Positions 847 through 39,354 of a DNA stretch of 64,000 nucleotides are shown here, piece by piece (position 1 is the first letter of the stretch; each line of letters starts with the position of its first letter). The translations under genes were made by a program, and so were the position numbers. Origin of the DNA: Clostridia bacterium (GTDB taxonomy: Bacteria; Bacillota; Clostridia; Oscillospirales; CAG-272); contig JAFTRA010000042.1 in the NCBI GenBank assembly GCA_017462485.1, positions 119,214 to 183,213 of the forward strand, in the 5' to 3' direction. The notes beneath the pieces are model-generated. The model worked only from the letters and a program-made list of their open reading frames with translations, made no database searches and was not told the DNA's origin.

Positions 847-2042
847 AGTTATCAAAACGCCCTTTTCTTGACCTGGCTTTAGATTTTTCTTTTGCCTTTT
901 GGTTTGTTGCTGAAAATATATTTTTGCACAGCATAGTAGCGGTATTTGCGTTAGTTCTTTTTATGGGACTTACAATAGTTAAATTTGTTTCACTAGGCGT
1001 TATAAAGCTCAAAATACCCGCGATATTTGTGCTGTATGGTATATTTGTTCTAGTATGCTATATGAATATATGGCTTGGATATTCGATAAAGGAATCTCTT
1101 TCTCTTGAGCTAGGAACTACTTTAATCAGAAATTTCGCCTTTCTTGTACTGGCATATTTCTACGTTACTATTACAGACATTGAACGGCTTAAGAAGATTT
1201 TTGTTTTCGCAACTACCGCAGGAAGCATTTTTGCAATGTTTATGACACTTCTTACAACAGGAAGCTTTATGCTTCGAGGAGATGATAGCATATTCAATGC
1301 CAATACTCTGGCTATCAGTGCTGCCGTTGCTATTTGCTTTATCGTATGCTCGAAAGAAAAATGGGCAACGCCTTACAATATTTTTTGCATTACCGTACTG
1401 TCATTGTTATGTATTTTCTCGGGAACAAGAAAAGCTTTAATTGCCGCTGTTATAACTATCGTTGTTTATTTCGTATTAAAAAATCCTCAAAAGCTACTTA
1501 AGAACACAATATTTATATTGGTTTTCGCTGTTGCCGTTTACTTTGCGTTGTTAAAAATTCCGTTTTTATATGAGATGCTCGGTAACAGAGTAGAATCAAT
1601 GTTTGCTCTTCTTATGGGGGAGTCCGGCGATAAATCTGCAGAATCGAGAGCAGATTTTATAAAGCTTGGACTTGAACATTTTCCAAACAGCCCTTGGCTC
1701 GGGCATGGAATCAACTGCTTCCAAACATTAAGAGGCGCGTTCGATACTTATTCTCATTGCAATTACATTGAATTGCTTTTTAGCGTTGGAATATTGGGAA
1801 CATTGGCTTACTACTCAATGTATCTATTCGTCTTACTTTATGCTTTAGGCAAATATTTTAAAAATAGAAGTGATAATGTAGTCCTCTCTATAGGAGTCAT
1901 TATATCGCTATTCTTCATTGATTTTGCCTTGGTTTCATACTATGAAAGAACGAATTTAATACTCGTTATAATATGTCTTGCCTTGATAACTGGAGAAAAG
2001 AAACATGCTCAAAAAAGTCTTAAAACTAATCGAAAATCCTAA
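843..2042 (+). CDS. O-antigen polymerase/ligase-like (Wzy-type) polytopic membrane protein
   Basis: ATG at 843 overlaps the upstream stop (ATGA) and follows AGAGGAA. About 10 hydrophobic helices plus a large late loop (SAESRADFIKLGLEHFPNSPWLGHGINCF), typical of the Wzy/O-antigen ligase family. Confidence 0.7.
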   Translation: MKLSKRPFLDLALDFSFAFWFVAENIFLHSIVAVFALVLFMGLTIVKFVSLGVIKLKIPAIFVLYGIFVLVCYMNIWLGYSIKESLSLELGTTLIRNFAFLVLAYFYVTITDIERLKKIFVFATTAGSIFAMFMTLLTTGSFMLRGDDSIFNANTLAISAAVAICFIVCSKEKWATPYNIFCITVLSLLCIFSGTRKALIAAVITIVVYFVLKNPQKLLKNTIFILVFAVAVYFALLKIPFLYEMLGNRVESMFALLMGESGDKSAESRADFIKLGLEHFPNSPWLGHGINCFQTLRGAFDTYSHCNYIELLFSVGILGTLAYYSMYLFVLLYALGKYFKNRSDNVVLSIGVIISLFFIDFALVSYYERTNLILVIICLALITGEKKHAQKSLKTNRKS

Positions 2043-2916
2043 CAAATTATTTGTTCATTTGGCGTACAAGGGATATTTTTCTACTATGGATGATGAAAAA
2101 TACCTAAAAAAAATGTACAAAGGTATTATGGGTAAAAAGCTTGATTTAGAAAATCCAAAAACATTTAACGAAAAGCTTCAATGGTTGAAGCTTCATGACA
2201 GAAACCCCGAATATACAAAACTCGTTGATAAATACGCAGTAAGAGAATATATTGCATCAACGATAGGCGAGGAATATCTCATTCCCCTTCTCGGTGTCTG
2301 GGATTCTGCCGACGATATTGATTTTGACGCTTTACCAAATCAATTTGTTTTAAAATGCAACCACAATTCCGGTTTAGGAATGTGCATTTGCAAAGACAAA
2401 TCGACTCTTGATATAGAAAAAACGCGGAATGAACTACGAAAAGGTCTAGCTCAAGATTATTATTTAACTAATCGCGAATGGCCCTACAAAAATGTCAAAA
2501 GAAAAATCATAGCTGAAAAATACATGGTAGATGAATCTGGAGTAGAGCTTAAAGACTATAAAATATTTTGTTTCAACGGACACGCAGAATACGTTGAAGT
2601 TGATTTTAACAGACACATAGAACATCAGTTAAATCCATATGATTTTGATTGGAATCCATTAAATTTTTGTGATACATCAAAAAATAATTATAGCGCAAAT
2701 ATCACCAAACCTACCAAACTAAAAGATATGCGTATAATAGCCGAAAAATTATCAAAAGCGGCAACTTTTATGCGAGTGGATTTTTACAGTATAAATGATG
2801 ACATCTACGTTGGAGAACTAACTCTTTTTCCAGGTGCAGGATTTATCCAATTTGAACCTCGTTCAGTGGATTTAAAATATGGACAGTTACTAGATTTACA
2901 TAAGGAGCAACAATGA
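2005..2916 (+). CDS. TupA-like ATP-grasp protein
   Basis: N-terminal block GKKLDLENPKTFNEKLQWLKLHDRNPEYTKLVDKYAVREYI and C-terminal MRVDFY...GELTLFPGAG are characteristic of the TupA-like ATP-grasp family found in teichuronopeptide and capsule loci. Confidence 0.8.
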   Translation: MLKKVLKLIENPNKLFVHLAYKGYFSTMDDEKYLKKMYKGIMGKKLDLENPKTFNEKLQWLKLHDRNPEYTKLVDKYAVREYIASTIGEEYLIPLLGVWDSADDIDFDALPNQFVLKCNHNSGLGMCICKDKSTLDIEKTRNELRKGLAQDYYLTNREWPYKNVKRKIIAEKYMVDESGVELKDYKIFCFNGHAEYVEVDFNRHIEHQLNPYDFDWNPLNFCDTSKNNYSANITKPTKLKDMRIIAEKLSKAATFMRVDFYSINDDIYVGELTLFPGAGFIQFEPRSVDLKYGQLLDLHKEQQ

Positions 2917-4082
2917 AAATTTCAAAAAGAGCAAATGCCATACACCCCTCATTAGCAAGAGATTTATTCAACAAAGCTAAAGAATATAATGATGTAATCG
3001 ATTTAACCTTGGGCGATCCAGATTTTGATACCCCCACGCCCTTAAAGAATGCAGCTTGCAAAGCTATTAATGAAAATCTTACACACTACTCTTGCAATGC
3101 AGGGCTTTTAGAAGCACGAATTGCTGTTTCTAAAAATATAAAAAAATATTGGAAAATAGATGCTGATCCTACAAATGAAGTCATGTTAACCGTCGGAGGA
3201 ATGGAGGCATTATATCTTGCTCTTTTTTCACTTATTGATTCCGGAGATGAAGTAATTGTTTTTGCACCATACTATGTAAACTATGTACAAATGATAAGAA
3301 GCTGCGATGGTATCCCTGTAATAATAGATGCATATTCGGAAAATTACGGTTTTCAATTAAATGAAAGAAAATTGCGGGAAGCAATTACAAACAAAACAGT
3401 TGCTATCGTTCTTAATTCTCCCTGCAATCCCACAGGGGCGATTATTTCTAAAGAAGATCTTCATACCATTGCAAAAATCGCAGACGAAAAAGAATTAGTC
3501 ATTATTTCGGATGAAGTTTACCACACTTTAATTTTCGATAATGAAAAACACGAAAGCGTTTTAACCTTCCCTGAAGCAAAAAACAGAACCGTTTTGATTG
3601 ATAGTATGTCAAAAGAATTTTGTATGACCGGTTGGAGAATAGGATATGCTTACGCACCATCTGTATTAATACAAAGTATGGTAAAAGTTCAAGAAAACAT
3701 TGCCGCTTGCGCCCCCCTACCATCTCAATATGCTTTAATTGAAGCATATACAAATGATGATATACAAACAAACTTCGCAGAAGATTTCCAAAGCAGGCGA
3801 GATTATTTGTACGACCGTATATCTTCTATAAACGGATTAATATGTAAAAAACCACAATCAACCTTCTACTTATTTATCAACATTTCTTCTACAAATATGT
3901 CATCTTTGGATTTTGCACATAAATTACTAGACACCCAACACGTAGCCGTAGTCCCCGGAATAACATACGGTGACGGATATTCGAATTACATTCGAATTGC
4001 ATTCACTAAGGATATTTCTATATTAAAAATCGCATGTGATAGAATTGAAAAATTTATATCAACTCAAATGAACAATCAATAG
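2913..4082 (+). CDS. class I/II (AspC-like) pyridoxal-phosphate aminotransferase
   Basis: LTLGDPDFDTP, NSPCNPTG, IISDEVY and the PLP-lysine motif SMSKEFCMTGWRIGY. Start overlaps the upstream stop. Confidence 0.85.
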   Translation: MKISKRANAIHPSLARDLFNKAKEYNDVIDLTLGDPDFDTPTPLKNAACKAINENLTHYSCNAGLLEARIAVSKNIKKYWKIDADPTNEVMLTVGGMEALYLALFSLIDSGDEVIVFAPYYVNYVQMIRSCDGIPVIIDAYSENYGFQLNERKLREAITNKTVAIVLNSPCNPTGAIISKEDLHTIAKIADEKELVIISDEVYHTLIFDNEKHESVLTFPEAKNRTVLIDSMSKEFCMTGWRIGYAYAPSVLIQSMVKVQENIAACAPLPSQYALIEAYTNDDIQTNFAEDFQSRRDYLYDRISSINGLICKKPQSTFYLFINISSTNMSSLDFAHKLLDTQHVAVVPGITYGDGYSNYIRIAFTKDISILKIACDRIEKFISTQMNNQ

Positions 4083-4125
4083 GGTTAAACTTTAAAAAAC
4101 TGCAATATAAACTTGAGGTAATAAA

Positions 4126-5604
4126 TTGTCAACAGAACTTAACAAAAAATCAACCAACGCGTTAGCTTGGTCAAGCTTTGCCGAAATAATGGCAAAACTT
4201 GTAACTCCAATAGTAAATATAATACTAGCACGTTTATTAACACCTGATGCATTTGGGGCAGTTGCTACCATAACTATGGTTATAACCTTTGCCGAAGTTT
4301 TCACGGATGCTGGATTTCAAAAATATATTGTACAGCACAAATTTAAAAACAACGAAGAACTTAATAATGGTACGAACGTAGCTTTTCTTACAAATTTAAC
4401 GCTCTCCGCGTTGATAGTTATTATCATTGTAATATTCAGACATCAATTAGCAAAGCTTGTTGGAAGTGATAGCTTAGGAAACGCAATTGCGGTAGCTTCT
4501 CTTTCTATTATTCTTGTTGCTTTCTCAAGCATACAAATAGCACGATTCAGAAGAGATTTAGATTTCAAATCATTATTCTTCGTTAGAATAGGAGCTGCTA
4601 TCATACCTCTCATAGTTACCGTTCCTCTCGCATTTATTCTTCGTAATTTCTGGGCATTAGTGATTGGAACTCTATCAGTAAATCTCTTTAATGCTGTTAC
4701 ACTCACGATAAAATCGGATTGGAAACCTAAGTTCTTTTACAAATTTTCAATTTTTAAAGAAATGTTTTCATTTAGCGCTTGGACGCTATTAGAAAGCATT
4801 TCGATTTGGTTAACAGTAAACATTGATATTTTTATAATTGGTAATAAACTTAGTGATTATCACCTTGGAATTTACAAAACCTCCATACAAACAGTAAATT
4901 CTTCAATCGGTATGATTTCCGCTGCTATATTACCTGTTCTTTTTTCAACTTTATCAAAGTGTCAAAATGATTGTGTCGAATTGAAAAATACTTATTTAAA
5001 ATTTCAAAAATACACTTCTCTACTTTTAATTCCATTAGGTTTTGGGTTATTTCTTTACAACGATCTTGTAACGTACATATTGCTAGGTAAACAATGGAAC
5101 GAAGCTGCTCAATTTATTGGAGTGTTCGGTCTCGTTTATGCATTTTTAGTCCTGTTTTCTTATTTTGCAAGCGAGCTCTATAGAAGCACCGGTAATCCAA
5201 AGTTATCCATTATTATTCAATTAATACACATTGCAATTTTAATCATCTCTATTGAAATCGCTGTTTCTTATAGTTTTTCTCTTTTATGCATAGCGCGTGC
5301 AATTACACAAATGTGTTCTATCCTGGCACACATAATATTTGTTAGATTTTTGTATAAAATTCCAATGATAAAGAGCTTGCTTAACATTATGCCTGCATTA
5401 ACTTGTTCAATAATTATGCTCATTAGCGGAATTATTCTACGTCAAGTCTCATCATCTATTTGGTGGCAATTTGTCGTAATTCTAATATGTGTGATTATTT
5501 ATATATTCTCATTATTTCTTTTGTTCAGAAAAACAAAAAACGAACTTCTACAAACAGATATTGCACAAAAACTGTTTCATATTCTACCGAGATATAAACG
5601 TTGA
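4126..5604 (+). CDS. Wzx-type polysaccharide flippase (MOP superfamily)
   Basis: TTG start. 492 aa with about 12-14 TM helices. N-terminus AWSSFAEIMAKLVTPIVNIILARLLTPDAFG is typical of polysaccharide biosynthesis (Wzx) proteins. Confidence 0.8.
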   Translation: MSTELNKKSTNALAWSSFAEIMAKLVTPIVNIILARLLTPDAFGAVATITMVITFAEVFTDAGFQKYIVQHKFKNNEELNNGTNVAFLTNLTLSALIVIIIVIFRHQLAKLVGSDSLGNAIAVASLSIILVAFSSIQIARFRRDLDFKSLFFVRIGAAIIPLIVTVPLAFILRNFWALVIGTLSVNLFNAVTLTIKSDWKPKFFYKFSIFKEMFSFSAWTLLESISIWLTVNIDIFIIGNKLSDYHLGIYKTSIQTVNSSIGMISAAILPVLFSTLSKCQNDCVELKNTYLKFQKYTSLLLIPLGFGLFLYNDLVTYILLGKQWNEAAQFIGVFGLVYAFLVLFSYFASELYRSTGNPKLSIIIQLIHIAILIISIEIAVSYSFSLLCIARAITQMCSILAHIIFVRFLYKIPMIKSLLNIMPALTCSIIMLISGIILRQVSSSIWWQFVVILICVIIYIFSLFLLFRKTKNELLQTDIAQKLFHILPRYKR

Positions 5605-5708
5605 AATTCTATTAAATCACAAAAATTTCTAATAGCGGATTTATAAAAATATAATCTATCTATACTTTGCAAAAAAGATAATGAAAAGGGAGCAAGCATA
5701 TTGACATC

Positions 5709-6251
5709 ATGACGGATTTATTTAAATCGGATTTGTTTAGATATTACGGAAGCAAAAAAGAAACTTTAAAGCAAAAGCTTTTCAGACCTAAAGAACTGAA
5801 ATACATTTTACTTTATAGAAAATGCAGAAATACAAAGAACAAATTTCTAAAAATATACTATGTATATAAATTACGTATGCTACAACAAAAAGCAGGTGTA
5901 CAAATTCCTTATAAAACCGAAATCGGTAAAGGTTTTTATATAGGACATGCAAATAATATCGTGATAAATCCGAATGCAAAAATAGGCAATAATGTGAACG
6001 TTGCCCAAGGAGTTACGATTGGCCAAGAAAATCGCGGTTCCCGCATGGGATCACCTGTAATCGGTGATAAAGTTTGGATAGGAGCCAATTCTGTTATAGT
6101 TGGAAATATCACCATTGGAGATGACGTTATGATCGCTCCTTTAACATTTGTAAATTTCGACGTACCGAACCATTCGATAGTAATTGGAAATCCTGCTAAA
6201 ATCATTCACAAAGACAATGCGACGGAAGACTATATCAATCGCACTGTCTGA
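5709..6251 (+). CDS. hexapeptide-repeat O-acetyltransferase (CysE/WcaB/LacA-like)
   Basis: Left-handed beta-helix repeats IGKGFYIGHANNIVINPNAKIGNNVNVAQGVTIG ... VIGDKVWIGANSVIVGNITIGDDVMI. Confidence 0.8.
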   Translation: MTDLFKSDLFRYYGSKKETLKQKLFRPKELKYILLYRKCRNTKNKFLKIYYVYKLRMLQQKAGVQIPYKTEIGKGFYIGHANNIVINPNAKIGNNVNVAQGVTIGQENRGSRMGSPVIGDKVWIGANSVIVGNITIGDDVMIAPLTFVNFDVPNHSIVIGNPAKIIHKDNATEDYINRTV

Positions 6252-6288
6252 TTAAATCAAAAAACAATACTTGTATAAAGAGGTTCAA

Positions 6289-7470
6289 ATGTTACTACTC
6301 TGTAACGAAATATTTCAACAAACATATGGTCGTGAGCCCGAAAGCGTGGCGTTCACGCCGTACAGAGTCTGTCCGATAGGGGCGCATAGCGACCATCAGC
6401 TAGGACGGATTACGGGGCTTGCGATAGACAAAGGAATACATATCGCTTATGGGCCGAAGCAGAACGGTATTATTGAGATACAGTCGCTTCAGTTTTCGAA
6501 GCGAGCGCAGTGGCACGTTGCTTCGACTCCAAAGGAGAAGCAAGGCGACTGGGCAGACCATTTGCGCGGAGCAACAATAGCGCTTAATTTGCGTTATCCA
6601 TTGAGAATAGGACTTTGCGCCGTGATTGAGGGCGAGCTGCCTATTGGAGGACTTTCCTCCTCTGCGGCGGTTATAATAACGTTTTTGTCCGCTCTATCGA
6701 AGATTAACGGAATTCAGCTCTCTGAAAGAGAGATGATAGAGCTTTCGCTCGAGGCGGAAAATAAATACGTAGGCGTAGCCTGCGGAAAGCTCGACCAGAG
6801 CTGCGAGATTTATTCGAAGAAAAATCACCTGCTTTACCTCGATACGAAGGACGATAGCTTTGAGCTTATTCCCGCGCAGCCGTTTATGAAGCCATATAAA
6901 ATAGCTATTTTCTTCTCGGGACTTGAGCGTTCGCTCGCAACGTCAAAATTTAATATGCGAGTTGACGAATGCAAGAGCGCCGCTTACGCTCTTATGGCAT
7001 ACGCAGGTATGGAATACGGCAAATTTGCCGATACGTATATGAGAGACGTTCCCTACAAGATATACCTTGACCATAGGGACAAGCTACCTGAAAACTGGCG
7101 CAAGAGAGCCGCGCATTACTTCACCGAGTACGAGCGCACCAAGCGCGGCGCTGAAGCCTGGAGATGCGGAAATATCGAGGAGTTTGGAAGACTTTCATTT
7201 GAGAGCGGTCACTCGTCGATACATAACTGGGAGACGGGCTCTCCCGAGCTTATCAAGCTCTACGATATTATGACAAAGACCGACGGTATTTACGGAGGAA
7301 GATTCTCCGGAGCAGGCTTTAAGGGCTGCTGTATGGCTCTTATTGACCCCGCATATGAGGAGTCTATAATTGAAAACGTACGCCGCGAATATATTAAAGA
7401 ATTCCCGCTTCTTGCCGATAAGTATTCCTCGCATATCTGCGAGAGTGCTGACGGTGTTAAGTTGAATTAA
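6289..7470 (+). CDS. GHMP-family sugar-1-kinase, galactokinase-like (possibly a uronic-acid kinase)
   Basis: ATG at 6289 follows AGAGG; the ORF track starts 18 nt upstream at a TTG. It has the GHMP motif PIGGLSSSAA. The N-terminal sugar motif is YRVCPIGAHSDHQLG rather than the canonical GalK NLIGEHTDY. Confidence 0.75.
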   Translation: MLLLCNEIFQQTYGREPESVAFTPYRVCPIGAHSDHQLGRITGLAIDKGIHIAYGPKQNGIIEIQSLQFSKRAQWHVASTPKEKQGDWADHLRGATIALNLRYPLRIGLCAVIEGELPIGGLSSSAAVIITFLSALSKINGIQLSEREMIELSLEAENKYVGVACGKLDQSCEIYSKKNHLLYLDTKDDSFELIPAQPFMKPYKIAIFFSGLERSLATSKFNMRVDECKSAAYALMAYAGMEYGKFADTYMRDVPYKIYLDHRDKLPENWRKRAAHYFTEYERTKRGAEAWRCGNIEEFGRLSFESGHSSIHNWETGSPELIKLYDIMTKTDGIYGGRFSGAGFKGCCMALIDPAYEESIIENVRREYIKEFPLLADKYSSHICESADGVKLN

Positions 7471-7492
7471 CCACCAAAGGATAAATTAAAAT

Positions 7493-8227
7493 ATGAAATG
7501 CTTGATTTTAGCCGCCGGATATGCGACAAGACTTTATCCCCTCACAGAAAATTTTCCAAAGCCGCTTTTGCCCGTGGGAGACAAAACAATTCTCGACTGG
7601 CTTGTTGACGATATTGATACGGCGAAGGTCGTAGATGAATACGTCGTTATTTCAAACCACAAGTACGCTTCGCATTTTGAGGCGTGGGCGAAAACCAAGA
7701 CGCAAAAAATCACTGTCGTTGACGACGGTACAAGCTCTAATGAGACGAGACTCGGCGCGGTTCGCGACGTAGAATTCGCTATTGAAAAGCTTGGACTTGA
7801 CGACGATATGCTCGTTATAGCGGGTGATAACGTACTGGATTTCAGCCTTACTAAGTTTATACACTACTCTTTAGATAAGGCAACCTCTGCTATTATGCGC
7901 TATTACGAGCCTGACGAAAAGAAGCTCTTGAAATGCGGTGTCGTTACCATTGACGATAACGACCTCGTTACTGCTATGACAGAAAAGTCCCCTACCCCTG
8001 CGACACACTGGTGCTGCCCGCCCTTCTACTATTACACAAGGGAAGACGCGCGCCGTGTTAAAGAGGGTATTGATATGGGCTGCGGAACGGATGCGCCGGG
8101 AAGCTATATTGCGTGGCTTGCCACGGTTTCTGACGTTCACGCTATGGAAATGCCCGGCAAACGCTACGACGTTGGAAATCTCGAGAGCTATGAAAAGGTT
8201 AAGGGGGAGTATCACGGAATATGCTGA
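7493..8227 (+). CDS. sugar-1-phosphate nucleotidylyltransferase
   Basis: N-terminal LILAAGYATRLYPLTENFPKPLLPV (G-x-G-T-R-L type pyrophosphorylase motif). Lies immediately downstream of the kinase. Confidence 0.75.
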   Translation: MKCLILAAGYATRLYPLTENFPKPLLPVGDKTILDWLVDDIDTAKVVDEYVVISNHKYASHFEAWAKTKTQKITVVDDGTSSNETRLGAVRDVEFAIEKLGLDDDMLVIAGDNVLDFSLTKFIHYSLDKATSAIMRYYEPDEKKLLKCGVVTIDDNDLVTAMTEKSPTPATHWCCPPFYYYTREDARRVKEGIDMGCGTDAPGSYIAWLATVSDVHAMEMPGKRYDVGNLESYEKVKGEYHGIC

Positions 8228-9297
8228 CTCCAAACGTTGATTTATCAGGAAAAACCGTTCTCGTCACCGGTGCGGCAGGCTTTATTGGCTCAAACCTGGT
8301 TATGAGACTTTTAAAGACCGCAAAAAATATAAAAATCGTCGGTGTTGACAATATGAACGACTATTACGACGTTTCGATTAAGGAGTACCGACTTAAAAAA
8401 ATAGAAGAGCTTGCGGCTGCCACAGAGGACTCTGAATGGACCTTCGTTAGAGGCAATATTGCTGACAGAGACCTTGTAGAAGCTCTTTTCGCTAAGTACC
8501 GCTTCGCTGTTGCAGTAAACCTTGCAGCTCAAGCCGGCGTACGCTACTCTATTACGAATCCCGACGTTTATATTGAGTCGAACATAATCGGATTTTACAA
8601 TATTCTCGAAGCGTGCAGAAGCTATCCTCCCGAGCATCTCGTCTATGCCTCCTCGTCGTCGGTTTACGGCTCTAACAAGAAGATTCCGTACAGCACAGAC
8701 GACAAGGTTGATAATCCTGTTTCTCTCTATGCCGCAACGAAAAAGAGTAACGAGCTTATGGCTCACGCTTACTCGAAGCTATACAACATTCCCTCGACGG
8801 CGCTCCGCTTCTTTACGGTTTACGGCCCTGCGGGACGTCCCGATATGGCTTATTTCAGCTTCACGAATAAGCTCAGACGTGGAGAAACGATAGATATATT
8901 CAACTACGGTAATTGTAAACGTGACTTTACATTTGTTGACGATATCATTACCGGTGTTGCGCTCGTTATGCAAAATGCTCCCGAGAAAAAATGCGGCGAG
9001 GACGGACTTCCAATACCGCCGTACAGAGTATATAATATAGGAAATAACTCTCCCGAGAGTCTCTCGGATTTTGTTACCACTCTCGGTGAGGAGCTTATAA
9101 GAGCCGGTGTTTTATCAGCCGATTTCAACCTCTCGGAGCATATGAGACTCGTTCCTATGCAGCCCGGTGACGTTCCCGAGACGTATGCTGACACGTCGGC
9201 GCTTGAGGAAGATTTCGGATTTAAGCCCGCAACACCGCTGCGTGACGGCCTTAGGACTTTTGCCGAATGGTACAAGGAATTTTACAAAGAAGATTAA
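8221..9297 (+). CDS. NAD-dependent epimerase, UDP-glucuronate 4-epimerase-like (Cap1J/WbnF type)
   Basis: VTGAAGFIGSNL Rossmann motif, YASSSSVYG, catalytic YAATKKSNE, RFFTVYGPAGRPDMAY. Confidence 0.8.
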   Translation: MLTPNVDLSGKTVLVTGAAGFIGSNLVMRLLKTAKNIKIVGVDNMNDYYDVSIKEYRLKKIEELAAATEDSEWTFVRGNIADRDLVEALFAKYRFAVAVNLAAQAGVRYSITNPDVYIESNIIGFYNILEACRSYPPEHLVYASSSSVYGSNKKIPYSTDDKVDNPVSLYAATKKSNELMAHAYSKLYNIPSTALRFFTVYGPAGRPDMAYFSFTNKLRRGETIDIFNYGNCKRDFTFVDDIITGVALVMQNAPEKKCGEDGLPIPPYRVYNIGNNSPESLSDFVTTLGEELIRAGVLSADFNLSEHMRLVPMQPGDVPETYADTSALEEDFGFKPATPLRDGLRTFAEWYKEFYKED

Positions 9298-9309
9298 AAT
9301 AGAAGCGAG

Positions 9310-10476
9310 GTGAATAGCGTGAGCGAAATTTACGGCGTACTTACAAAGCTTATACAAAAAGAAATATGCGGACTTTCAGACGTCGTAATTTCTCCGGACG
9401 CCATAACGCCCGAAGCAGCAAAGACTCTTTATTCAATATCGAGCGCTCACGACGTTTCACACATCGTAGGACAGGCGCTTTTATCGCTTGGTGCGAAGAT
9501 GCCCGAGGAGACAGAGGCAGCCTTTAAAAAGTCGGTTTCTCTTGCTATGTACCGCTATTTACAGACCAAAAGAGAGCTTTCCGCACTAAAAGAGACGCTT
9601 GAAGACGGAAAAATACCATATATCGTTTTGAAAGGCTCCGTACTACGCGACTATTATTCCGAGCCTTGGATGCGTACAAGCTGCGATATTGATATTCTTA
9701 TAAAGAGCTGTGATATCAGTCGGGCTACCGAGCTTCTCACGTCGGAGCTTGACTATAAATTCGAGGGCAGAGCCTCGCACGACGTATCTCTCTTCTCTCC
9801 ATCCGGAATTCACGTTGAGCTGCATTTTAGCCTTATAGAAGAGGGAGAGAGCGCAAAGACCTTCGATGATATCTGGAATTCCGACTTAATCGTAGGCGTT
9901 TCTGATTACGGTTATGCTATGACTCCCGAGACATTTCTTACCTACCACGTGGCTCATATGGCAAAGCATTTTAACGGTGGCGGCTGCGGAATACGACCCT
10001 TTATTGACCTTTGGATTCTCGAAAGCAAGATGCCCTATGACAAGGACAAACTCTTCGCTCTTCTCTCAAGCTGCGGGCTTAATGCTTTTTATGACGCGGC
10101 AAGGCTGCTCTCTTTCGTATGGCTTTCTGACGTCGCGCATACGAACCTTACTCTTGCTATGGAGAGTTACGTTATGGGTGGCGGAGTTTACGGCACTATT
10201 GAAAACAGAGTGACTATACGACAAAGGAAAAGCGGCGGAAAATTCAGGTATATTTTAGGAAGAATTTTTCTGCCCTACCGAAAACTTAAAAGAATTTATC
10301 CGAGACTTGAAAAGTATCCTTTTCTTCTTCCCTACTACGAGGCGCGTCGCTGGGTGACCTTTTTAGTACGCGGTAACAAGAGCCGCGCACTATCCGAAAT
10401 AAGCTACACTGCGAGCGTTTCGGAGGATAAAAGTGTGGAGCTTGCGACGCTTATGCAAGAACTCGGACTTAACTGA
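9310..10476 (+). CDS. uncharacterised nucleotidyltransferase-family protein (NTP_transf_5-like)
   Basis: GTG start at 9310, or GTG at 9319 after GAGGTG. Core LKGSVLRDYY...RTSCDIDILI...HVELHF resembles the uncharacterised nucleotidyltransferase family. Assigned by eye only. Confidence 0.5.
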   Translation: MNSVSEIYGVLTKLIQKEICGLSDVVISPDAITPEAAKTLYSISSAHDVSHIVGQALLSLGAKMPEETEAAFKKSVSLAMYRYLQTKRELSALKETLEDGKIPYIVLKGSVLRDYYSEPWMRTSCDIDILIKSCDISRATELLTSELDYKFEGRASHDVSLFSPSGIHVELHFSLIEEGESAKTFDDIWNSDLIVGVSDYGYAMTPETFLTYHVAHMAKHFNGGGCGIRPFIDLWILESKMPYDKDKLFALLSSCGLNAFYDAARLLSFVWLSDVAHTNLTLAMESYVMGGGVYGTIENRVTIRQRKSGGKFRYILGRIFLPYRKLKRIYPRLEKYPFLLPYYEARRWVTFLVRGNKSRALSEISYTASVSEDKSVELATLMQELGLN

Positions 10477-10489
10477 AGGTTTTAAAAAT

Positions 10490-11458
10490 ATGACTATTAT
10501 CGTTACCGGGTGCGCCGGTTTTATTGGATTGAATTTCACAAAATACTGGCTCTACGAGCATAAGGGTGACAAGGTTGTCGGCATTGATTCTTTCAGCTAT
10601 GCCGCAAACGTAGATGAAATCTACGAGCTTTGCGAAAAAGAGCATAATTTCGTTTTTTATCGCGCGGATATATGCGACAAGGTGAAGATATCTCGTATTT
10701 TTCAAGACGAGAAGCCCAATGCCGTGGTTAACTTTGCGGCAGAGACGCACGTTGACCGTTCGATTGAATCCGCTGAAAAGTTTCTGATGACGAACGTTGT
10801 CGGAACGAACCTTTTGCTCGACGCCTGCCGTGAATACGGAAACGTAAGATTTCATCAGATTTCAACAGATGAGGTGTACGGAGATTTACCGTTAAACTCT
10901 AAAAAGTCATTTACCGAGTCTTCTCCGCTCCTCCCCAGCTCACCGTACAGCGCAAGCAAGGCGGCGGCGGATCTTCTTTCACTTGCCTACTACAGAACGC
11001 ACGGCGTTCCCGTTACGATTTCCCGCTCAGCTAACAATTACGGCTTCTTCCAGCACGAAGAAAAGATGATTCCTCACAGCGTAAAGAGCCTTATGCGAGG
11101 CGAGAAAATCTCGATTTACGGAGACGGAAAAAACGTGCGAGATTGGATATACGTGGGCGACCACGTGAAAGCGGTCGAAGCCATTCTTCTTAACGGTAAG
11201 ATTGGAGAAATATACAACGTCGGAGCAGGATATGAAATATCCAATCTTGAGCTTGCAAGGAAAATAATTTTATGCTATACCGAAAGCAGCGATGCCGCTA
11301 TAGATGAATATATAGAATTTGTTCCAGACAGAAAGGGACACGACAGACGCTACTCGCTTGACACCTCAAAAATAAAAAACGCTCTCGGGTGGCAGGCTAT
11401 CTCTGACTTTGACGAAGAGCTTTTAAAAACGATAAAATGGATAGGAGAAAAACAATGA
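10490..11458 (+). CDS. rfbB: dTDP-glucose 4,6-dehydratase
   Basis: MTIIVTGCAGFIG, ETHVDRSI, STDEVYGD, YSASKAAADL. The ORF track start at 10433 overlaps the upstream gene; the ATG at 10490 gives a canonical N-terminus. Confidence 0.9.
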   Translation: MTIIVTGCAGFIGLNFTKYWLYEHKGDKVVGIDSFSYAANVDEIYELCEKEHNFVFYRADICDKVKISRIFQDEKPNAVVNFAAETHVDRSIESAEKFLMTNVVGTNLLLDACREYGNVRFHQISTDEVYGDLPLNSKKSFTESSPLLPSSPYSASKAAADLLSLAYYRTHGVPVTISRSANNYGFFQHEEKMIPHSVKSLMRGEKISIYGDGKNVRDWIYVGDHVKAVEAILLNGKIGEIYNVGAGYEISNLELARKIILCYTESSDAAIDEYIEFVPDRKGHDRRYSLDTSKIKNALGWQAISDFDEELLKTIKWIGEKQ

Positions 11459-16233: not shown

Positions 16234-16260
16234 TTTTTCTTTAATTTTGATTTATCATAA

Positions 16261-16300
16261 AAGCGCCGACGGTATTTTTACTGTCAGCGCTTGTTTTTTT
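16261..16300 (+). terminator. intrinsic terminator after the AraC gene
   Basis: AAGCGCCGACGG / CTGTCAGCGCTT stem followed by a T8 run. Confidence 0.7.
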
Positions 16301-16384: not shown

Positions 16385-19300
16385 TCAAGCGTAATAATTT
16401 CCCTCTCCGATTGACGATTCATACTCCTTACACATCACGCATTCCTCAAGGAAATACCCACTTCCCTCGTACATAGCTCTTAAATACGTTCCGCAGTCGG
16501 AGCAATAATAATGGTCGGTACAGTCACCGCAAATCGAGGAGCAAAGCTCTTTGTTATCGTGGTCGCAAACGCCGTGTATGTGACCCGCGCAAAGATTTTT
16601 GCCGCAGCCGTCACTCTCGCATACTCCGTGCACGCCAAGCTCGAAAATACCGTCGCAAGAGGAGCATACGGTAAACGGAAGATTAAGAACGACACCCATG
16701 ATATTATCATTAGGCGCCCACATATTATCATCGTAATTCGTCTGATATTCCGTGAGCATTACGTAGGAAATCTTGCCCGTATCAACTCCGAACGACTCAA
16801 CCTGAGCGCTACTCCAACCGTTATCAAGAAGATTTCTTCTATGAATCTCGGCAGAGACAGGAGTCAGAGCCAAAACGTAATTATCATTTGTTACGAAATA
16901 AGCCGAGCAGGTTACGGTTATAATATCGGCATATTCAGTGTATTCAGCGTTATCACCGTAAGTATAACGAAGAGAATATTTTAGCGTTGCGATACTGCTT
17001 TCTTTACTGTAATGAACCTCAATTTTTACCCAGTTGCCGCCGTCAGTCTGATATTTATTAACGCCTCCCCAGCTAACAGGACATACCGCGCCCTCATAAA
17101 TATGCATACATTCAAAGCAAGGATTTGCTCCACCGCAAAATACGCATTTTTCTTCATCGTAAAGCTTATGGCATCTGTCACAGGCATAATTTCCGTCAGA
17201 ATCGTTATGCCCGTAAGGTTCTATCATACCGAGAATTCCGCTCTCTTCACCGGACGTTGCCACATCTGTGCCGTTTATTATCATATATGAGTAACCGCAG
17301 CTCTCTTTTTGGCAGCTATACGTATCTCTCATTCCGGGGTGCAAGCAGCTTGCATCATGACCCTTAAAAACGGTAACGTCACTTGCACATCTCGGGCAAT
17401 ACTGCGTAATATCCACTCTCTCCGAGCATGCGCAGCATTCAGAGCATTTCTCGCATCTTTCGCAAACGCTTGTGACTGCGTTGTAGCATCCCGAGCAGAA
17501 CTTCTGCTCTTCCTTATCGTCCTCACCTATACAGCTGCAGCAGTACTGACACTGATTACAGCTTCCGCACAAGGTTTCCGCCGCGCCATAGCAGCTCGCG
17601 CAAGTATTAGCTTCTCCGTAGTTACCGCAAATTCCGCAAGTATATGCTCCTCTCATTTCGTTATAGAGGAAAATTCCTTGACAGTTTGAGCAATAGTAAT
17701 GACTTCTTCCTGATACGCAGTCAACGTCTGTCGAGGTCATCGACTCAGGTGTGTGATTACATATAACGATATTAGGATCGCAGTAGTAGCATTCAAACAT
17801 CTCGACACCGATTTCGTTATACACCACACATAATACCTTGCCGCAATCGTTACATTTTCTATGCTCGTATTGCATATTGTAACCGCAGTTCATTAAGAAA
17901 GGCGAGGTATTCGTATGGTCGCAAACGATTTCAAGGTCGCAGGTACAGCAATCTAAACAATAACCGCAATTATCGTGGAAGGAACTCGCCGGAAGATTGT
18001 TTTTGCATCTATCACAGAATCTCGACGTATCTTTCCCCTTTGTACACATAACGTCGTGCTCGTAAACGCAGACGTACATACCGCACTCGCAAAGCTCGTG
18101 GGTAACACCTCTTACGCCGCAGCCCTCGCATATAATCATAGATTGTTTACACCAGTCGCAAAGTTCGTCTGCATCCTTGTCGTCGCACGGAACAGTTCCT
18201 ATGATTATAACCTTATCGTGCTCGGAGCCGGTGGTCTTTCCATCCTCCGAGAAGTACCAATTGCATATATCGCAACGGTAATGGTTATACCAACCGACCT
18301 CGTTACAGGTGGGGTCCTTCGCTTCGTAGAACTTAAGCGTTCCACCGTCTGTTACGTGATTGCACTCTGCAGGTGGATTGTTTTGTCCGGGATCCTGACC
18401 TTCGCAATTATCGTGGTCGCCCTGGCACAAGGGCGCACCGCAATTATCACACGTTTTGCCGTGTATATTTTCGTCCTCACAAATATATTCGGAGCAGTTA
18501 GGACACATCATATAATGCGCATCTCCAAGTCCGTCGCAGGTATATCCGTCACAATTCGCGCACTTATGCTCTTCTCTTGCGCCCTCTTCTCTACATTCAG
18601 GGCAATCCTTAAGCTTCATATCGCACTCTTTGTGCGCATCGTAATCGCCCTCGCATCTGTATTTATTACAGATCTCGCAAAGCGTATAATGATCACGGAG
18701 CTGACCGAGCTTATCTCCCTCCTCGCACCAGGAAAGCTCTCCTTCGCAATGCTCGCAAATCTCTTTCGGGTGATAGCAATAGTGCAGGTGGCAGGACGGA
18801 CAGTAGGATGCGCAGCCTATATATTCATTACAATTTGCGCAAAGCTCGTGATCCTCGCAAATATACTTTTCGCATTCCGGGCACTTTGCGTGCATCCACT
18901 GATTTCCTTCAAACGTTCCGCCACCGCAGAAGCAGGGCTCGTTAGGATAGCAAAGAGAGTGATCTCCTACGCAGATGTAATTATTACATTTAGCGCAAAC
19001 GGAATGAGTTTCACCGGGCTTTTTACAGCCCTCGCATACTCCCTCGGGGTCATTTTTCTTACACTTCGTGTGGTCACCGCGGCAAACGTAATCCTCACAT
19101 TCGGGGCAAAGGTTGTGAATTACTCCCTCGACGTTGCAGCCGGGGCAGACGGTTTCACCGGGAGCCTTGCACTTCGAGTGATCGCCTACGCAGGTATATT
19201 TAAAGCAATATATACATTTTTCGTGAAGCGTTCCGCCACCGCAGCCTTGACAAACGGTAGTAACGTTTCCGCCCGTCGTTCCACTTCCGGAACCGCCATC

Positions 19301-19513
19301 ACCCGTTCCATCTCCCTCGGTCTCGGTGTCGGGGGCTTTATTTTCCTCTTTATTTTCGTTTTCGTTATTTTCCTTATTTTCTTCGCTGTTTTCGTTCTCA
19401 CTGTCATTATTCATTCCCGGAATATCTATCGGCAATTCCTCGCAGGAAACGGCGCCAAGCGCAAGTGCGCAGGTGAGAATTATTAGGAATAGAGCTACGA
19501 GAAGTTTTTTCAT
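16385..19513 (-). CDS. giant cysteine-rich lipoprotein of unknown function (tandem CxxC...CxxC...GDH..C modules)
   Basis: MKKLLVALFLIILTCALALGAVSC signal peptide with lipobox, then an acidic N/E-rich linker, then about 125 Cys by hand count. The ORF track starts 12 nt upstream at 19525. Confidence 0.8.
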   Translation of the reverse strand: MKKLLVALFLIILTCALALGAVSCEELPIDIPGMNNDSENENSEENKENNENENKEENKAPDTETEGDGTGDGGSGSGTTGGNVTTVCQGCGGGTLHEKCIYCFKYTCVGDHSKCKAPGETVCPGCNVEGVIHNLCPECEDYVCRGDHTKCKKNDPEGVCEGCKKPGETHSVCAKCNNYICVGDHSLCYPNEPCFCGGGTFEGNQWMHAKCPECEKYICEDHELCANCNEYIGCASYCPSCHLHYCYHPKEICEHCEGELSWCEEGDKLGQLRDHYTLCEICNKYRCEGDYDAHKECDMKLKDCPECREEGAREEHKCANCDGYTCDGLGDAHYMMCPNCSEYICEDENIHGKTCDNCGAPLCQGDHDNCEGQDPGQNNPPAECNHVTDGGTLKFYEAKDPTCNEVGWYNHYRCDICNWYFSEDGKTTGSEHDKVIIIGTVPCDDKDADELCDWCKQSMIICEGCGVRGVTHELCECGMYVCVYEHDVMCTKGKDTSRFCDRCKNNLPASSFHDNCGYCLDCCTCDLEIVCDHTNTSPFLMNCGYNMQYEHRKCNDCGKVLCVVYNEIGVEMFECYYCDPNIVICNHTPESMTSTDVDCVSGRSHYYCSNCQGIFLYNEMRGAYTCGICGNYGEANTCASCYGAAETLCGSCNQCQYCCSCIGEDDKEEQKFCSGCYNAVTSVCERCEKCSECCACSERVDITQYCPRCASDVTVFKGHDASCLHPGMRDTYSCQKESCGYSYMIINGTDVATSGEESGILGMIEPYGHNDSDGNYACDRCHKLYDEEKCVFCGGANPCFECMHIYEGAVCPVSWGGVNKYQTDGGNWVKIEVHYSKESSIATLKYSLRYTYGDNAEYTEYADIITVTCSAYFVTNDNYVLALTPVSAEIHRRNLLDNGWSSAQVESFGVDTGKISYVMLTEYQTNYDDNMWAPNDNIMGVVLNLPFTVCSSCDGIFELGVHGVCESDGCGKNLCAGHIHGVCDHDNKELCSSICGDCTDHYYCSDCGTYLRAMYEGSGYFLEECVMCKEYESSIGEGNYYA

Positions 19514-19663
19514 AATTATTAGCATTCCTTTCAGGAAAGATGTCGTTTTTTAGATTTACTTCCAAACTGTTTTCTTTCAGAAGAGCCTTATCCGTTTAAT
19601 TTAACGGTAGATTTAGTAAAGGGTTAACCCATAACGGAGCTAACCCTTTCATTATATTGTTTA

Positions 19664-20170
19664 TTACTCAACAAACGTTATAGTTGAGTACGTTCCGGGA
19701 TTATTGTAGGTATGCCCGTTATGGATAACGAGAATCTTATCCTTGTGCACCTCAATTCTTACGTCGTAGGCATAGCCGTCCGAATTAGTGCGCTCAAAGG
19801 TAAGAACGTTCATATCCCTATCGCATTTGGTTTCGGGAACGCTGAATATTTTATGCATACCAGAATCCTTGAACTCCACGGTGTTCTCGGACGTAAATTC
19901 AACGCTTACGTGAACGTAAAGCATTTTGAGCGAATTTTCAGAGGTTACCAGCTTTGCCTCTTCCTTATCTCTTATCTCTATTGACTCGAAATAAAAGGTT
20001 TTTCCCGAAACGGAAATCTTTTTATCCGTAGGAACGTCGTCCTTAAATCTGTTATTGTAAGGATCGAAAACTCCGTCTTGCTCGGTTATGCCGTCGTCCT
20101 TATCACCGCACGAGGCAAATGATAAAAGAGAGAGCGACAGTAAAATAAGCAGAGCAATTATTTTTTTCAT
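19664..20170 (-). CDS. small lipoprotein, unknown function
   Basis: MKKIIALLILLSLSLLSFASCGD lipobox. A hairpin at 19618-19652 separates it from the downstream Cys-rich gene. Confidence 0.7.
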   Translation of the reverse strand: MKKIIALLILLSLSLLSFASCGDKDDGITEQDGVFDPYNNRFKDDVPTDKKISVSGKTFYFESIEIRDKEEAKLVTSENSLKMLYVHVSVEFTSENTVEFKDSGMHKIFSVPETKCDRDMNVLTFERTNSDGYAYDVRIEVHKDKILVIHNGHTYNNPGTYSTITFVE

Positions 20171-39335: not shown

Positions 39336-39354
39336 AACTTTGGAGGAAAAGAAA

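Follow-up and report, generated by a model that had tools for sequence, protein, structure and literature searches.

The open reading frame at 16385..19525 on the minus strand of the window (the whole 64,000-nucleotide stretch analyzed here) encodes a predicted 1046-aa lipoprotein built largely of Cys/His modules. We judge the chances to be about even that this protein is a zinc-stabilized extracellular stalk presenting an eight-stranded beta-meander domain, metal binding being predicted from the sequence. All coordinates below are on the minus strand.

Composition and export signals

The sequence-only reading had put the cysteines at about 125, some 12% of 1046 residues, and counting bore this out, giving 125 Cys (11.95%) together with 40 His and 44 overlapping CxxC motifs; the runner-up in Cys content among the real genes of the window contains 4%. 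Two of these cysteines lie in the signal peptide (lipobox Cys28 included) and 123 in the mature chain. In composition-preserving shuffles of the mature chain, CxxC appeared 14.7 ± 3.4 times (maximum of 29 in 5000 shuffles, versus 44 observed) and HxxC 4.8 ± 2.0 times (versus 18). Therefore, the pattern exceeds mere Cys richness.

Export signals were assessed with the lipobox criterion of PROSITE PS51257 (an n-region with Lys/Arg, a hydrophobic h-region, and [LVI][ASTVI][GAS]C). The signal peptide (aa 1 to 28; 19442..19525) reads MKK, then LLVALFLIILTCALALG, then AVS before Cys28 (ending in LALGAVS-C28), and the lipobox predicted earlier was recovered, since A-V-S-C satisfies the PS51257 rule and matches its regular expression, although Ser at −1 is a less common option that stricter Gram-positive patterns reject. 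It belongs to the Sec/SPase II class and lacks a twin arginine. Extracytoplasmic signals extend across the family: a lipobox was found in 13 of 13 B/A-module relatives with an intact N terminus among the first 50 retrieved proteins (P0001 to P0050), and every retrieved module-bearing relative with an intact N terminus carries a signal peptide, mostly with a lipobox. The domains joined to the modules in relatives (dockerin, BspA-type LRR_5, and Flg_new) are all extracellular. Behind the lipobox lies a low-complexity N/E/G-rich linker free of Cys and His (aa 29 to 89; 19259..19441; pLDDT about 22), presumed to be a wall-spanning tether.

Four module types in tandem

Four module types (B, A, K, and R) were resolved, and some 25 Cys/His modules occupy ~730 residues, about 85% of the outer part. 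The B module follows the pattern CPxCG-x5-H-x2-CxxC-x2-Y-x-C-x-GDH-x2-C. Three of them stand in tandem (aa 90 to 192; 18950..19258), each with 6 Cys and 2 His arranged as C-x2-C-x5-6-H-x2-C-x2-C-x4-C-x3-H-x2-C, and are followed by B-module variants and short units of the A type, about 16 to 19 aa each, CxxC-x4-C-x3-5-H (aa 196 to 374; 18404..18940). The A unit itself is 16 aa long (CxxC-x4-C-x3-H) and also makes long arrays in P0021, P0031, P0046, and P0052. The R repeat spans about 45 aa; the first copy (aa 388 to 445; 18191..18364; H-x16-C-x10-C-x2-C) precedes B module 6 (aa 464 to 494; 18044..18136) and a variant K unit with His517 in place of a Cys (aa 502 to 529; 17939-18022). R repeats 2 and 3, separated by a CYYC knuckle (aa 535 to 629; 17639..17923), align with the R family and reach a local pLDDT of up to 64 to 68. 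K units, with eight Cys and no His (CxxC-x7-CxxCxxCxxCCxC; aa 630 to 700; 17426..17638), and R repeat 4, likewise aligned with its family (aa 708 to 755; 17261..17404), complete the series. In hhalign comparisons, the K unit matched the B module with 80% probability, and a CxxC...CxxC core was common to B, K, and R.

The modules quoted in the sequence-only reading were found exactly as written (aa 92 to 119, 127 to 155, 164 to 192, and 466 to 494), and its dense CxxC clusters lie at aa 642 to 665 and 677 to 700. It had also described the modules as divergent in DNA sequence, and the data agree: TRF detected no tandem array in the gene, the longest match between modules is 27 nt at 85%, and the mean DNA column identity of B modules 1 to 3 is 74%. 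Judged by sequence, the module repeats are old and diverged.

Zinc-ribbon likeness of single modules

CP-x-CG is the classical rubredoxin and zinc-ribbon knuckle. Every B and K module contains two CxxC knuckles 7 to 12 residues apart, with zinc-ribbon matches below the curated cut-offs where these are given. When a B-module profile was compared with the PDB, nearly all of the ~28 top-ranked structures were bL32 zinc ribbons (best E=0.0027; B-module side of the alignment, 'CPgCGeegvtHekCeyCGkY'), whose spacing, CPxCG-x5-H-x2-CxxCG-x-Y, is nearly identical to that of the B module; B module 6 also gave a phmmer match to bL32 (7ood_y). Single modules matched solely zinc/iron knuckle families in Pfam, namely, Zn_ribbon_3 (best E=3.9e-4), DZR_2, Ribosomal_L32p, and B-box. 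Both sets of matches, to bL32 and to Pfam models, are borderline, with E values of roughly 1e-3 to 1e-6 and scores under the gathering thresholds, and Cys-rich profiles attract one another. The resemblance of the paired knuckles to zinc ribbons, proposed earlier, is thus upheld as a likeness, and homology to zinc ribbons or B-boxes is not established, because all matches fall below curated thresholds. Those folds (bL32, Zn_ribbon_3, DZR/DZR_2, and zf-B_box) are cytoplasmic or nuclear single domains, whereas the B modules are secreted, stand in tandem, and have C-x3-H-x2-C as an additional tail.

Several named families were considered and rejected. The B-box finger was matched by 7 of 33 single modules (best E=3.5e-6), and the eight Cys/His ligands of the B module recall B-boxes, which bind two Zn in a cross-brace; the whole protein reached 18.3 bits, short of the 27 required for PF25287, and the likeness is a resemblance only because the ligand order differs. 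The earlier analogy to DnaJ failed: the DnaJ cysteine-rich domain (PF00684) has four CxxCxGxG motifs and two zinc centers, while the motif occurs here once (aa 92 to 99), with no DnaJ_CXXCXGXG match at E<=10. Only 2 of the 44 CxxC motifs precede a His (aa 242 and 782), against a multiheme c-type cytochrome, and a Giardia variant surface protein (VSP; PF03302) is opposed by the absence of any Pfam match to it at E<=10 and of a transmembrane segment; the chain ends in ...SSIGEGNYYA.

The A unit holds 3 Cys and 1 invariant His per 16 aa, and this odd Cys number suits a C3H site rather than disulfide pairing within the unit. Full-chain AlphaFold2 modeling gave an unusable model (mean pLDDT, 39.6), so that the rod shape is not a confident prediction here.

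Homology of the R repeats to an IgA protease

R repeats, which have no Pfam entry, were defined as ~45-aa units of the form H-x10-16-[C/T]-x3-G-x5-6-C-x2-C-x2-[FY]. About 30 secreted repeat proteins matched aa 393 to 442, and the R-family profile (four query copies included) matched residues 854 to 897 of 9qa6_A over the full 44-aa unit with E=2.3e-14. By this sequence comparison, the R repeats (aa 388 to 445, 535 to 623, and 708 to 755) are clearly homologous to ZBD1/CTD2 of the Thomasclavelia ramosa IgA protease, an M64 enzyme (UniProt Q9AES2; PDB 9QA6), and they belong to the same sequence family as its ZBD1/ZBD2. In that enzyme, ZBD1 and ZBD2 contain putative tetrahedral zinc sites of 2His+2Cys or 3Cys+His, which are AI predicted and 'pending experimental validation', and no disulfide occurs among its 24 Cys (PMC12237041). 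The same region has been described as CTD2/CTD4, 'metal-associated periscope domains', forming an extended rod by SAXS (PMC12415215); zinc-stapled, rod-like 'periscope' domains were thus proposed in 2025 from AlphaFold and SAXS evidence only (PMC12237041, PMC12415215). The protease is anchored to the cell wall, and the lack of precedent for a Cys/His zinc fold outside the cell, implied earlier, is therefore not supported.

Both proteins come from gut Bacillota, are surface proteins anchored in the wall or membrane, and place Cys/His at fixed spacing between the anchor and a functional domain, and zinc binding is putative in both. The protease packs 5 such sites into ~200 aa and contains just 24 Cys among its 1234 residues, whereas our protein has 123 Cys and consists mostly of B, A, and K modules, which the protease lacks; its predicted anchor is an N-terminal lipid rather than a C-terminal LPXTG-like one, and it has no catalytic domain.

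A distal beta domain between Cys/His blocks

The beta-rich domain (aa 816 to 950; 16676..17080) comprises eight consecutive antiparallel strands with a conserved LNLPF motif at its end and was modeled by AlphaFold2, with 16 cassettes, at a core pLDDT of 80 to 92 and a pTM of 0.71. It had been called Cys free and beta rich; the second description holds, and the first does not, as it contains one Cys (C873). No significant PDB fold match was found (Foldseek best E=0.1), and the weak top matches are up-and-down beta-barrels. The N-terminal flank (aa 772 to 815; 17081..17212), with GH-x-D-x-D-G-x-Y-x-CDxC and then three Cys knuckles, is kept in all orthologues. The final Cys/His block noted earlier was confirmed at aa 954 to 1032 (16430..16666); it includes CxxC-x8-HGxC-x4-C-x4-C-x2-H-x-H-x2-C-x-H and is better conserved among orthologues than any other part, and its junction recurs in P0015, P0031, P0038, and P0046.

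Conservation and length variation

In line with the earlier reading, which recognized no named family, no Pfam, NCBIfam, or PDB family claims the protein. Exhaustive searches yielded a handful of orthologues (917 to 1113 aa) and about a dozen other lipoproteins with the same modules, named by no source. An omega of 0.17 indicates purifying selection on the protein, and Cys and His are by far its most conserved residues: across five or six orthologues, 292 of 325 Cys cells (90%) and 78 of 117 His cells (67%) were kept, and an orthologue of 31 to 37% identity keeps 88 of 100 aligned Cys, 21 of 34 aligned His, and about 25% of the non-Cys residues.

Orthologue lengths of 917, 969, 1046, and 1113 aa reflect gain or loss of modules or cassettes. 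An in-frame indel of 219 bp (73 codons; 18974..19192) removes two B-module periods from the 98%-identical P0001, leaving that strain one B module versus three here, and its length equals the distance between the two copies of a short direct repeat (18957/19176). In P0058 the N-terminal cassette is duplicated, and a 4479-aa dockerin/LRR protein bears a graft of the whole cassette. The protein may thus behave like a stalk, because its length varies by module gain and loss, a cassette has been grafted, and the layout, with modules proximal to the anchor and the beta domain distal, mirrors that of the IgA protease.

Periscope and rod stalks (SasG/Aap G5-E and Sgo_0707 SHIRT; Whelan et al. 2021, PMC8201768) likewise combine an anchor, a long array of core-less beta modules, and a distal binding domain. 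Strain length variation through tandem repeat gain or loss, a periscope hallmark, is seen in the 73-aa indel; highly identical DNA repeats are not, given the lack of a TRF array and the 74% identity among modules 1 to 3. Canonical periscope repeats are near-identical in DNA and metal free or zinc bridged between chains (Aap), whereas the repeats here are old and diverged, and metal is proposed within each module.

A proposed zinc-stapled stalk and its alternatives

The account that follows is inferred as regards the binding of metal, which metal it is, the form of the rod, its exposure at the surface, and the ligand. The protein would be a surface lipoprotein of a monoderm gut Clostridium, exported by Sec and then lipidated at Cys28, with the disordered N/E/G-rich tether spanning the wall. 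Every module would be built on one or two tetrahedrally coordinated metal ions, Zn2+ being the likeliest, acquired outside the cell, for on the order of 30 metal sites per chain. Together, the modules would make a stiff, core-less, protease-resistant rod holding the beta-meander or barrel, capped by the last Cys/His block, away from the membrane to bind a ligand, and module gain and loss would tune its length. Among the roles listed in the sequence-only reading, a scaffold is therefore the best supported, with metal stapling in place of disulfide knotting; metal buffering, sulfide binding, and redox roles are possible, without specific support.

It is improbable, in our estimation, that dense intramodule disulfides instead knot the chain into a protease-resistant surface coat or adhesin, in the manner of Giardia VSPs or EGF/furin-like repeats, with the conserved His being structural or incidental. 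The 12% Cys and many CxxC motifs match the composition of Giardia VSPs and high-cysteine membrane proteins, which likewise form an anchored surface coat on a gut anaerobe; Cys counts are even in B (6) and K (8); and cysteines are gained or lost pairwise between orthologues (803+815 and 995+1002). Against this, only Cys is more conserved than His, which is found at a constant spacing in all B, A, and R units, A units hold three Cys and one His, ligand-type exchanges occur (His517 with Cys and Cys995 with Asp), CPxCG knuckles and the bL32/zinc-ribbon matches favor metal, and the homologous IgA-protease domains show no disulfides. The host is, moreover, a strict-anaerobe-type gut Clostridium, a kind of bacterium in which extracellular disulfide formation is generally uncommon. 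The VSP likeness is an analogy only, without sequence similarity: VSPs are eukaryotic, with a C-terminal transmembrane anchor, a CRGKA tail, and no conserved His pattern; metal binding by VSPs has been reported, and their protease resistance is presumed.

We are similarly doubtful of an extracellular metal sink, a giant anchored metallothionein that binds or buffers thiophilic metals (Zn, Cu, Cd, and Ni) or else sulfide at the surface for storage, detoxification, or zinc competition in the gut. The 123 Cys and 40 His of the mature chain could furnish up to ~40 four-ligand sites, and the CC and CxC spacing of the His-free K clusters is reminiscent of metallothionein. However, metal-homeostasis genes (transporters and Zur/CsoR-type regulators) were absent nearby in every context examined, metallothioneins lack fixed His/aromatic scaffolds, and the ordered, position-specific modules, the conserved non-Cys beta domain, and the LRR/dockerin fusion better suit a structural role.

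A redox-active chain, in which rubredoxin-like iron knuckles or thiol/disulfide relays would serve as an extracellular electron conduit or redox buffer, is very unlikely. CPxCG is a rubredoxin motif too, the CxxCG part gives weak rubredoxin-family matches, and the sites lie close together along one chain; yet most sites contain His, which is not rubredoxin-like, the two CxxCH motifs do not make a multiheme cytochrome, and no respiratory or flavin-transfer genes lie near the gene. The signal peptide has no twin arginine, and therefore export of a folded cofactor protein is unlikely.

Finally, a non-functional or artifactual ORF (an assembly chimera or decaying gene) is effectively refuted: although the gene is known solely from metagenome assemblies, the ORF is intact, with the same neighbors, in at least four independent assemblies from three or four lineages (the 98%-identical strain and two or three more distant ones), its omega is low, 90% of Cys are kept at ~35% identity, and no DNA-level repeat collapse was seen.

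Significance of a putative zinc-knuckle stalk

Zinc fingers are textbook intracellular folds. Cys/His zinc-stapled stalk domains were proposed only in 2025, for one bacterial surface enzyme and from models alone, and the present protein and its small family push the stalk idea to an extreme, nearly the whole extracellular chain being modules, with B, A, and K types described in no database. Such a putative zinc-knuckle stalk lipoprotein is rare and of a barely described kind. If metal binding is true, the modules would represent new Pfam domain families, a simple model, with 8 ligands in a module of 30 aa, in which to study zinc acquisition after Sec export, and a metal-dependent means of building or tuning adhesin stalks in uncultured gut Clostridia. 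The gut setting is anaerobic, sulfide rich, and zinc limited. A bolder proposal, which we consider unlikely, is a new extracellular class: a lipid-anchored polymer of ~25 mini zinc fingers with ~30 to 40 thiolate/imidazole metal sites per chain, whose assembly, stiffness, and length at the surface would be switched by how much zinc, or another thiophilic metal, the gut lumen offers, or which would also be a major surface metal reservoir in competition with host nutritional immunity. If a zinc-switched class is true, metal-dependent extracellular folding would be a regulatory principle of surface display in anaerobic Bacillota; if disulfides are present instead, the protein would be a bacterial counterpart of the VSP coat of Giardia, also of interest.

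Gene context and translation start

Judging from sequence evidence, namely the omega value, conserved synteny, and a terminator-like hairpin, the ORF is a real gene. A gene for a 168-aa lipoprotein (19664..20170), which has no family or PDB match, always lies directly 5′ of it; the copy in L001 is 47% identical, and the order GH2-UxuA-small lipoprotein-Cys-rich gene is kept in L001, L054, and L055/L056. The hairpin, GCGCTGAC...GTCGGCGC and then TTTTAT, 3′ of the stop codon (16257..16290), was read from the sequence and is missing from the list of a simple terminator scanner. Translation probably starts at the second ATG (19513; MKKLL...), yielding 1042 aa, because a GAAAGGA ribosome-binding site lies directly against the first ATG and a 98%-identical homologue is called from MKK.

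The Cys-rich ORF and its gene signals

The Cys-rich gene is an uninterrupted ORF on the minus strand (16385..19525), encoding 1046 aa with 125 Cys (11.95%), 40 His and 44 overlapping CxxC motifs. The sequence-only reading had described a real Cys/His-module ORF of this length and about 12% Cys, which was confirmed, and its four quoted modules, dense CxxC clusters and terminal block were found where it had placed them. Every other real gene in the window contains at most 4% Cys. Upon shuffling of the mature chain (5000 shuffles), CxxC occurred 14.7 ± 3.4 times, with a maximum of 29, versus 44 in the whole ORF, and HxxC occurred 4.8 ± 2.0 times versus 18 observed. The non-randomness lies in the spacing, beyond composition alone.

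Translation likely starts at the second ATG (19513, MKKLL); a Shine-Dalgarno sequence, GAAAGGA, directly adjoins the first ATG and is separated from the second by 12 nt. The stop codon is followed by a hairpin and then TTTTAT. A 503-aa antisense ORF (17975-19486, plus strand) and several shorter ones lie inside the gene; the 503-aa ORF is Ala/Thr/Val-rich, a shadow of TGC/TGT, GAA and similar codons opposite, and is almost certainly not a gene.

Four types of Cys/His module

The signal peptide and lipobox (aa 1-28) are followed by an N/E/G linker without Cys or His (aa 29-89). Six B modules (aa 90-192, 196-229, 306-341 and 464-494) follow the pattern C-x2-C-x5-6-H-x2-C-x2-C-x4-C-x3-H-x2-C, with 6 Cys and 2 His per ~30 aa and the consensus CPGC......H..C..C..Y.CVGDH..C. 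Short A units, CxxC-x4-C-x3-5-H, lie within aa 229-374; in relatives they form long arrays of 16-aa units, each carrying 3 Cys and 1 His or 2 Cys and 2 His. Four R repeats, H-x10-16-C-x3-G-x5-6-CxxC, were located at aa 388-445, 535-578, 589-629 and 708-755, and K units with eight Cys, CxxC-x7-CxxCxxCxxCCxC, at aa 630-700, a K variant at aa 502-529 having one Cys replaced by His517. A conserved GH-D-D-G-Y-CDxC motif and further knuckles (aa 772-815) precede the beta domain (aa 816-950), and a Cys/His cap (aa 954-1032) follows it. The earlier description of a Cys-free beta-rich stretch was right in location, but the domain holds one Cys. With hhalign, B matched K at a probability of 80% and R at 63% through a common CxxC...CxxC core, and therefore the four module types look like variations on a two-knuckle theme.

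An acidic motif, D-x-D-x-D...C-D-x-C, stands twice directly N-terminal to a CDxC knuckle, as in GHNDSDGNYACDRC (aa 446-459 and 772-785; nt 18149-18190 and 17171-17212). It is kept in all orthologues and also occurs in two module-bearing lipoproteins, P0008 and P0021. The motif resembles the DxDxDG calcium loop and may form a mixed Ca/Zn site.

Module similarity to zinc knuckles and IgA-protease domains

Whole-protein sequence searches of Pfam, NCBIfam and PDB returned nothing over threshold, in agreement with the earlier failure to recognise a named family; bL32 and the zinc-ribbon protein YfgJ were listed below threshold. When a B-module profile was compared with all PDB sequences, the bL32 zinc ribbon accounted for almost all of the top ~28 matches, with a nearly superimposable motif in the two (CPgCGeegvtHekCeyCGkY; E=0.0027). 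Single-module Pfam scans yielded zinc/iron-knuckle families only, all below curated thresholds: zf-B_box_Trim66 in 7 of 33 modules (best E=3.5e-6), Zn_ribbon_3, DZR_2, Ribosomal_L32p, B-box, HIT and a rubredoxin-like domain. These matches appear to represent a consistent fold signal, not family membership. Membership of the DnaJ-type finger, Giardia VSP, multihaem cytochrome and metallothionein families was considered and rejected.

The R-repeat profile aligned strongly and over its full length (E=2.3e-14) with residues 854-897 of PDB 9QA6, the IgA protease of Thomasclavelia ramosa, and weaker matches fell at residues 942-969 and 1103-1130. We infer a ~30-residue offset, which puts these matches into regions described in two 2025 papers. 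ZBD1 (E879-T1008; 129 aa, ~110 Å, ~0.85 Å per residue) and ZBD2 were described as sheets of three strands, linked through putative tetrahedral sites with either 2 His + 2 Cys or 3 Cys + His as ligands, and no disulfide was seen among the 24 Cys of the protease (PMC12237041). The same regions, as CTD2 and CTD4, were termed metal-associated periscope domains, proposed to hold the protease at a distance from the wall, and isolated CTD2 was a fully extended rod by SAXS (PMC12415215). By profile similarity, the R repeats are members of an uncurated IgA-protease ZBD/CTD2 family.

Cys/His metal-stapled stalk domains in gut Bacillota surface proteins were first put forward in 2025, on the basis of models of a single enzyme. 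The B, A and K modules are undescribed, as is a chain with ~85% of its ectodomain in such modules; chains of this family contain 12-14% Cys and of the order of 30 putative sites. A literature phrase search for extracellular or secreted zinc fingers or ribbons returned none, and a zinc-ribbon stalk would surprise those who take zinc ribbons as intracellular.

The beta domain

Full-length AlphaFold2 modelling (8 sequences) gave a pLDDT of 39.6; this unusable model was left out of the fold search. The beta domain and its Cys/His flanks form a cassette common to the wider family, with the junction ...Y.D.tFsG.lNLPF..C..C.G...H..C. Modelling of aa 778-1000 with 16 cassettes reached pLDDT 69 (core 80-92) and pTM 0.71, with eight consecutive antiparallel strands predicted. 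Foldseek found no significant match in PDB (best E=0.1), and the weak top matches were mostly up-and-down beta-barrels, namely, APCDD1, LbpB/fHbp, avidins, nitrophorin and the bile-salt sensor VtrC (TMt 0.50). The beta-cassette profile matched nothing in PDB or Pfam, and P0049, a HYR/SprB-like repeat protein pulled in by jackhmmer with the beta domain, is unrelated and was discarded as spurious. These weak matches at most hint at a binding domain of calycin-like type.

Relatives and distribution

Exhaustive HMMER searching of 1.84 billion cluster representatives (E<=1e-3) gave 49 matches in three groups; the homologue survey that the sequence-only reading had called for comes to a few orthologues and ~12 module lipoproteins. 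Group (i) comprises the strain variant P0001 (969 aa, 98% identical) and the distant orthologues P0002 (917 aa), P0022/P0058 (1113 aa, 13.7% Cys) and the fragments P0004, P0006 and P0007. Group (ii) consists of ~12 further lipoproteins of the same modules, unnamed in every source (P0003, P0008, P0011, P0015, P0019, P0021, P0031, P0038 and P0046, later P0051-P0055), some with LRR_5 or FecR parts. Group (iii) holds many secreted ~45-aa-repeat proteins that match the query only at aa ~390-442. The 4479-aa protein P0005, from an ENA metagenome and also part of group (i), contains a complete query-like cassette at residues ~3460-4330 as well as dockerin, BspA-type LRR_5 and Flg_new domains; across residues ~3290-4330 it shows, besides the cassette, 14 regex matches to the eight-Cys K unit, several of which overlap, so that they represent ~10 distinct units. 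This arrangement shows that the query-type cassette is a portable super-module and connects it with cellulosome-type surface assemblies.

All retrieved module-bearing relatives with an intact N-terminus have a signal peptide and most a lipobox; among the first 50 retrieved proteins, the lipobox was present in 13/13 B/A-module proteins with an intact N-terminus. No source names any module-bearing relative or orthologue, clusters containing relatives hold 1-3 sequences each, and the family is rare. A word-indexed search with the whole query gave 3 matches only, the N/E-rich linker having probably filled the candidate list; a 47-aa module alignment matched nothing, and a 293-column array alignment gave 7 matches, 5 of them new unnamed relatives. 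The query protein found no locus in the GTDB species genomes, and the species is therefore absent from that representative set. ProA is 78% identical to that of its nearest relative, an 'Eubacteriales bacterium' MAG, and 69% to that of Eubacterium sp. CAG:841; the host is, to judge from sequence, an uncultured, gut-type member of the Clostridia/Eubacteriales.

Conservation and module turnover

Compared with P0002 (31-37% identity), the query keeps 88 of its 100 aligned Cys and 21 of its 34 aligned His, non-Cys identity being ~25%. In the alignment of orthologues, conservation extends to 292/325 Cys cells and 78/117 His cells, with the exchanges His517<->Cys and Cys995<->Asp. The strain variant differs at 10 synonymous and 7 non-synonymous positions, none at Cys or His (omega for the two strains, 0.17). 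A 73-codon in-frame indel further separates the two strains; it takes out exactly two B-module periods, and its length matches the distance between the copies of a short direct repeat. In P0058 the whole N-terminal cassette is duplicated. As the earlier reading held, the modules have diverged in DNA: Tandem Repeats Finder detected no repeats, and the longest DNA common to the three best modules is <=27 nt at 85%. The repeats are old. Because the modules lack long stretches of identical DNA, the 73-aa indel was judged not to stem from assembly collapse.

A candidate metal-stapled stalk

Taken together, the data give about an even chance that the protein is a metal-stapled stalk presenting the beta domain; its metal sites are putative, and its function and metal content are what we infer. 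The protein would be exported unfolded by Sec and lipidated at Cys28, with the disordered linker as tether. Modules would fold around metal ions picked up outside the cell, the anoxic, reducing gut keeping thiolates available. Together they would form a stiff rod of ~730 residues, whose length, extrapolated from the ~0.85 Å per residue of ZBD1, could reach a few tens of nm. The rod would present the beta domain and cap distally, and module gain or loss would tune its length.

Two alternatives, each improbable and equally so, have to be weighed. A disulfide-knotted, VSP-like surface coat would account for the composition and for B and K units having even numbers of Cys, but is at odds with the His pattern. 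We favored metal over disulfides because His is invariant at a fixed spacing, A units carry an odd Cys count, Cys<->His/Asp exchanges occur, CPxCG knuckles are present, zinc-ribbon profiles match, and the IgA-protease domains are homologous, the zinc sites of that reference being themselves predictions (PMC12237041). The sheer number of putative sites would suit a surface metal sink, against which stand the ordered architecture, the adhesin-type fusions and the lack of metal-homeostasis genes among the neighbours. Putative His ligands, a Sec signal and the lack of CxxCH arrays make a redox or iron chain very unlikely, and an artefactual ORF, the least credible of all, is excluded by conservation.

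Gene neighbourhood

The strain variant shares the order GH2, UxuA, small lipoprotein and Cys-rich lipoprotein with the window, and so do two other lineages; the small lipoprotein is 47% identical between lineages. Distant relatives lie in unrelated genomic contexts, and thus there is no conserved maturation or transport operon. The 168-aa partner lipoprotein (19664-20170, minus strand) lies directly upstream of the Cys-rich gene in all three lineages examined; no relative of it turned up in Pfam, NCBIfam or PDB, it shows no detectable similarity to the beta domain, and it may act as co-receptor or as assembly partner. The gap between the two genes is 138 bp in the window versus 44 bp at L001 and L055, the loci of relatives with the same gene order. 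Directly after the stop codon of the gene for the 168-aa lipoprotein lies a perfect 9-bp stem, AAAGGGTTA ... TAACCCTTT (19618-19649, minus strand), whose loop is 14 nt long and which has no T-run after it; it may be a partial terminator or a processing/stability element setting the ratio of the two lipoproteins.

The window encodes a second large lipoprotein (39277-42036, plus strand; lipobox FTFAAC) with BspA/HupY-type leucine-rich repeats and PARCEL repeats. Elsewhere, LRR_5 genes adjoin or fuse with Cys/His-module proteins (loci L052 and L053; proteins P0005 and P0015), which suggests a common surface-adhesin repertoire. A polysaccharide-biosynthesis cluster (1-11450, especially 2000-6000) encodes a Wzx-type flippase, epimerases and NTP_transf_5; its GC content drops to 30-34% versus ~44% elsewhere, as is typical of a horizontally exchanged capsule/O-antigen-like cassette. 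At L001 and L055 the same cluster directly adjoins the Cys-rich gene; in the window an AraC/GH4/beta-lactamase-fold/GDPD block sits between them.
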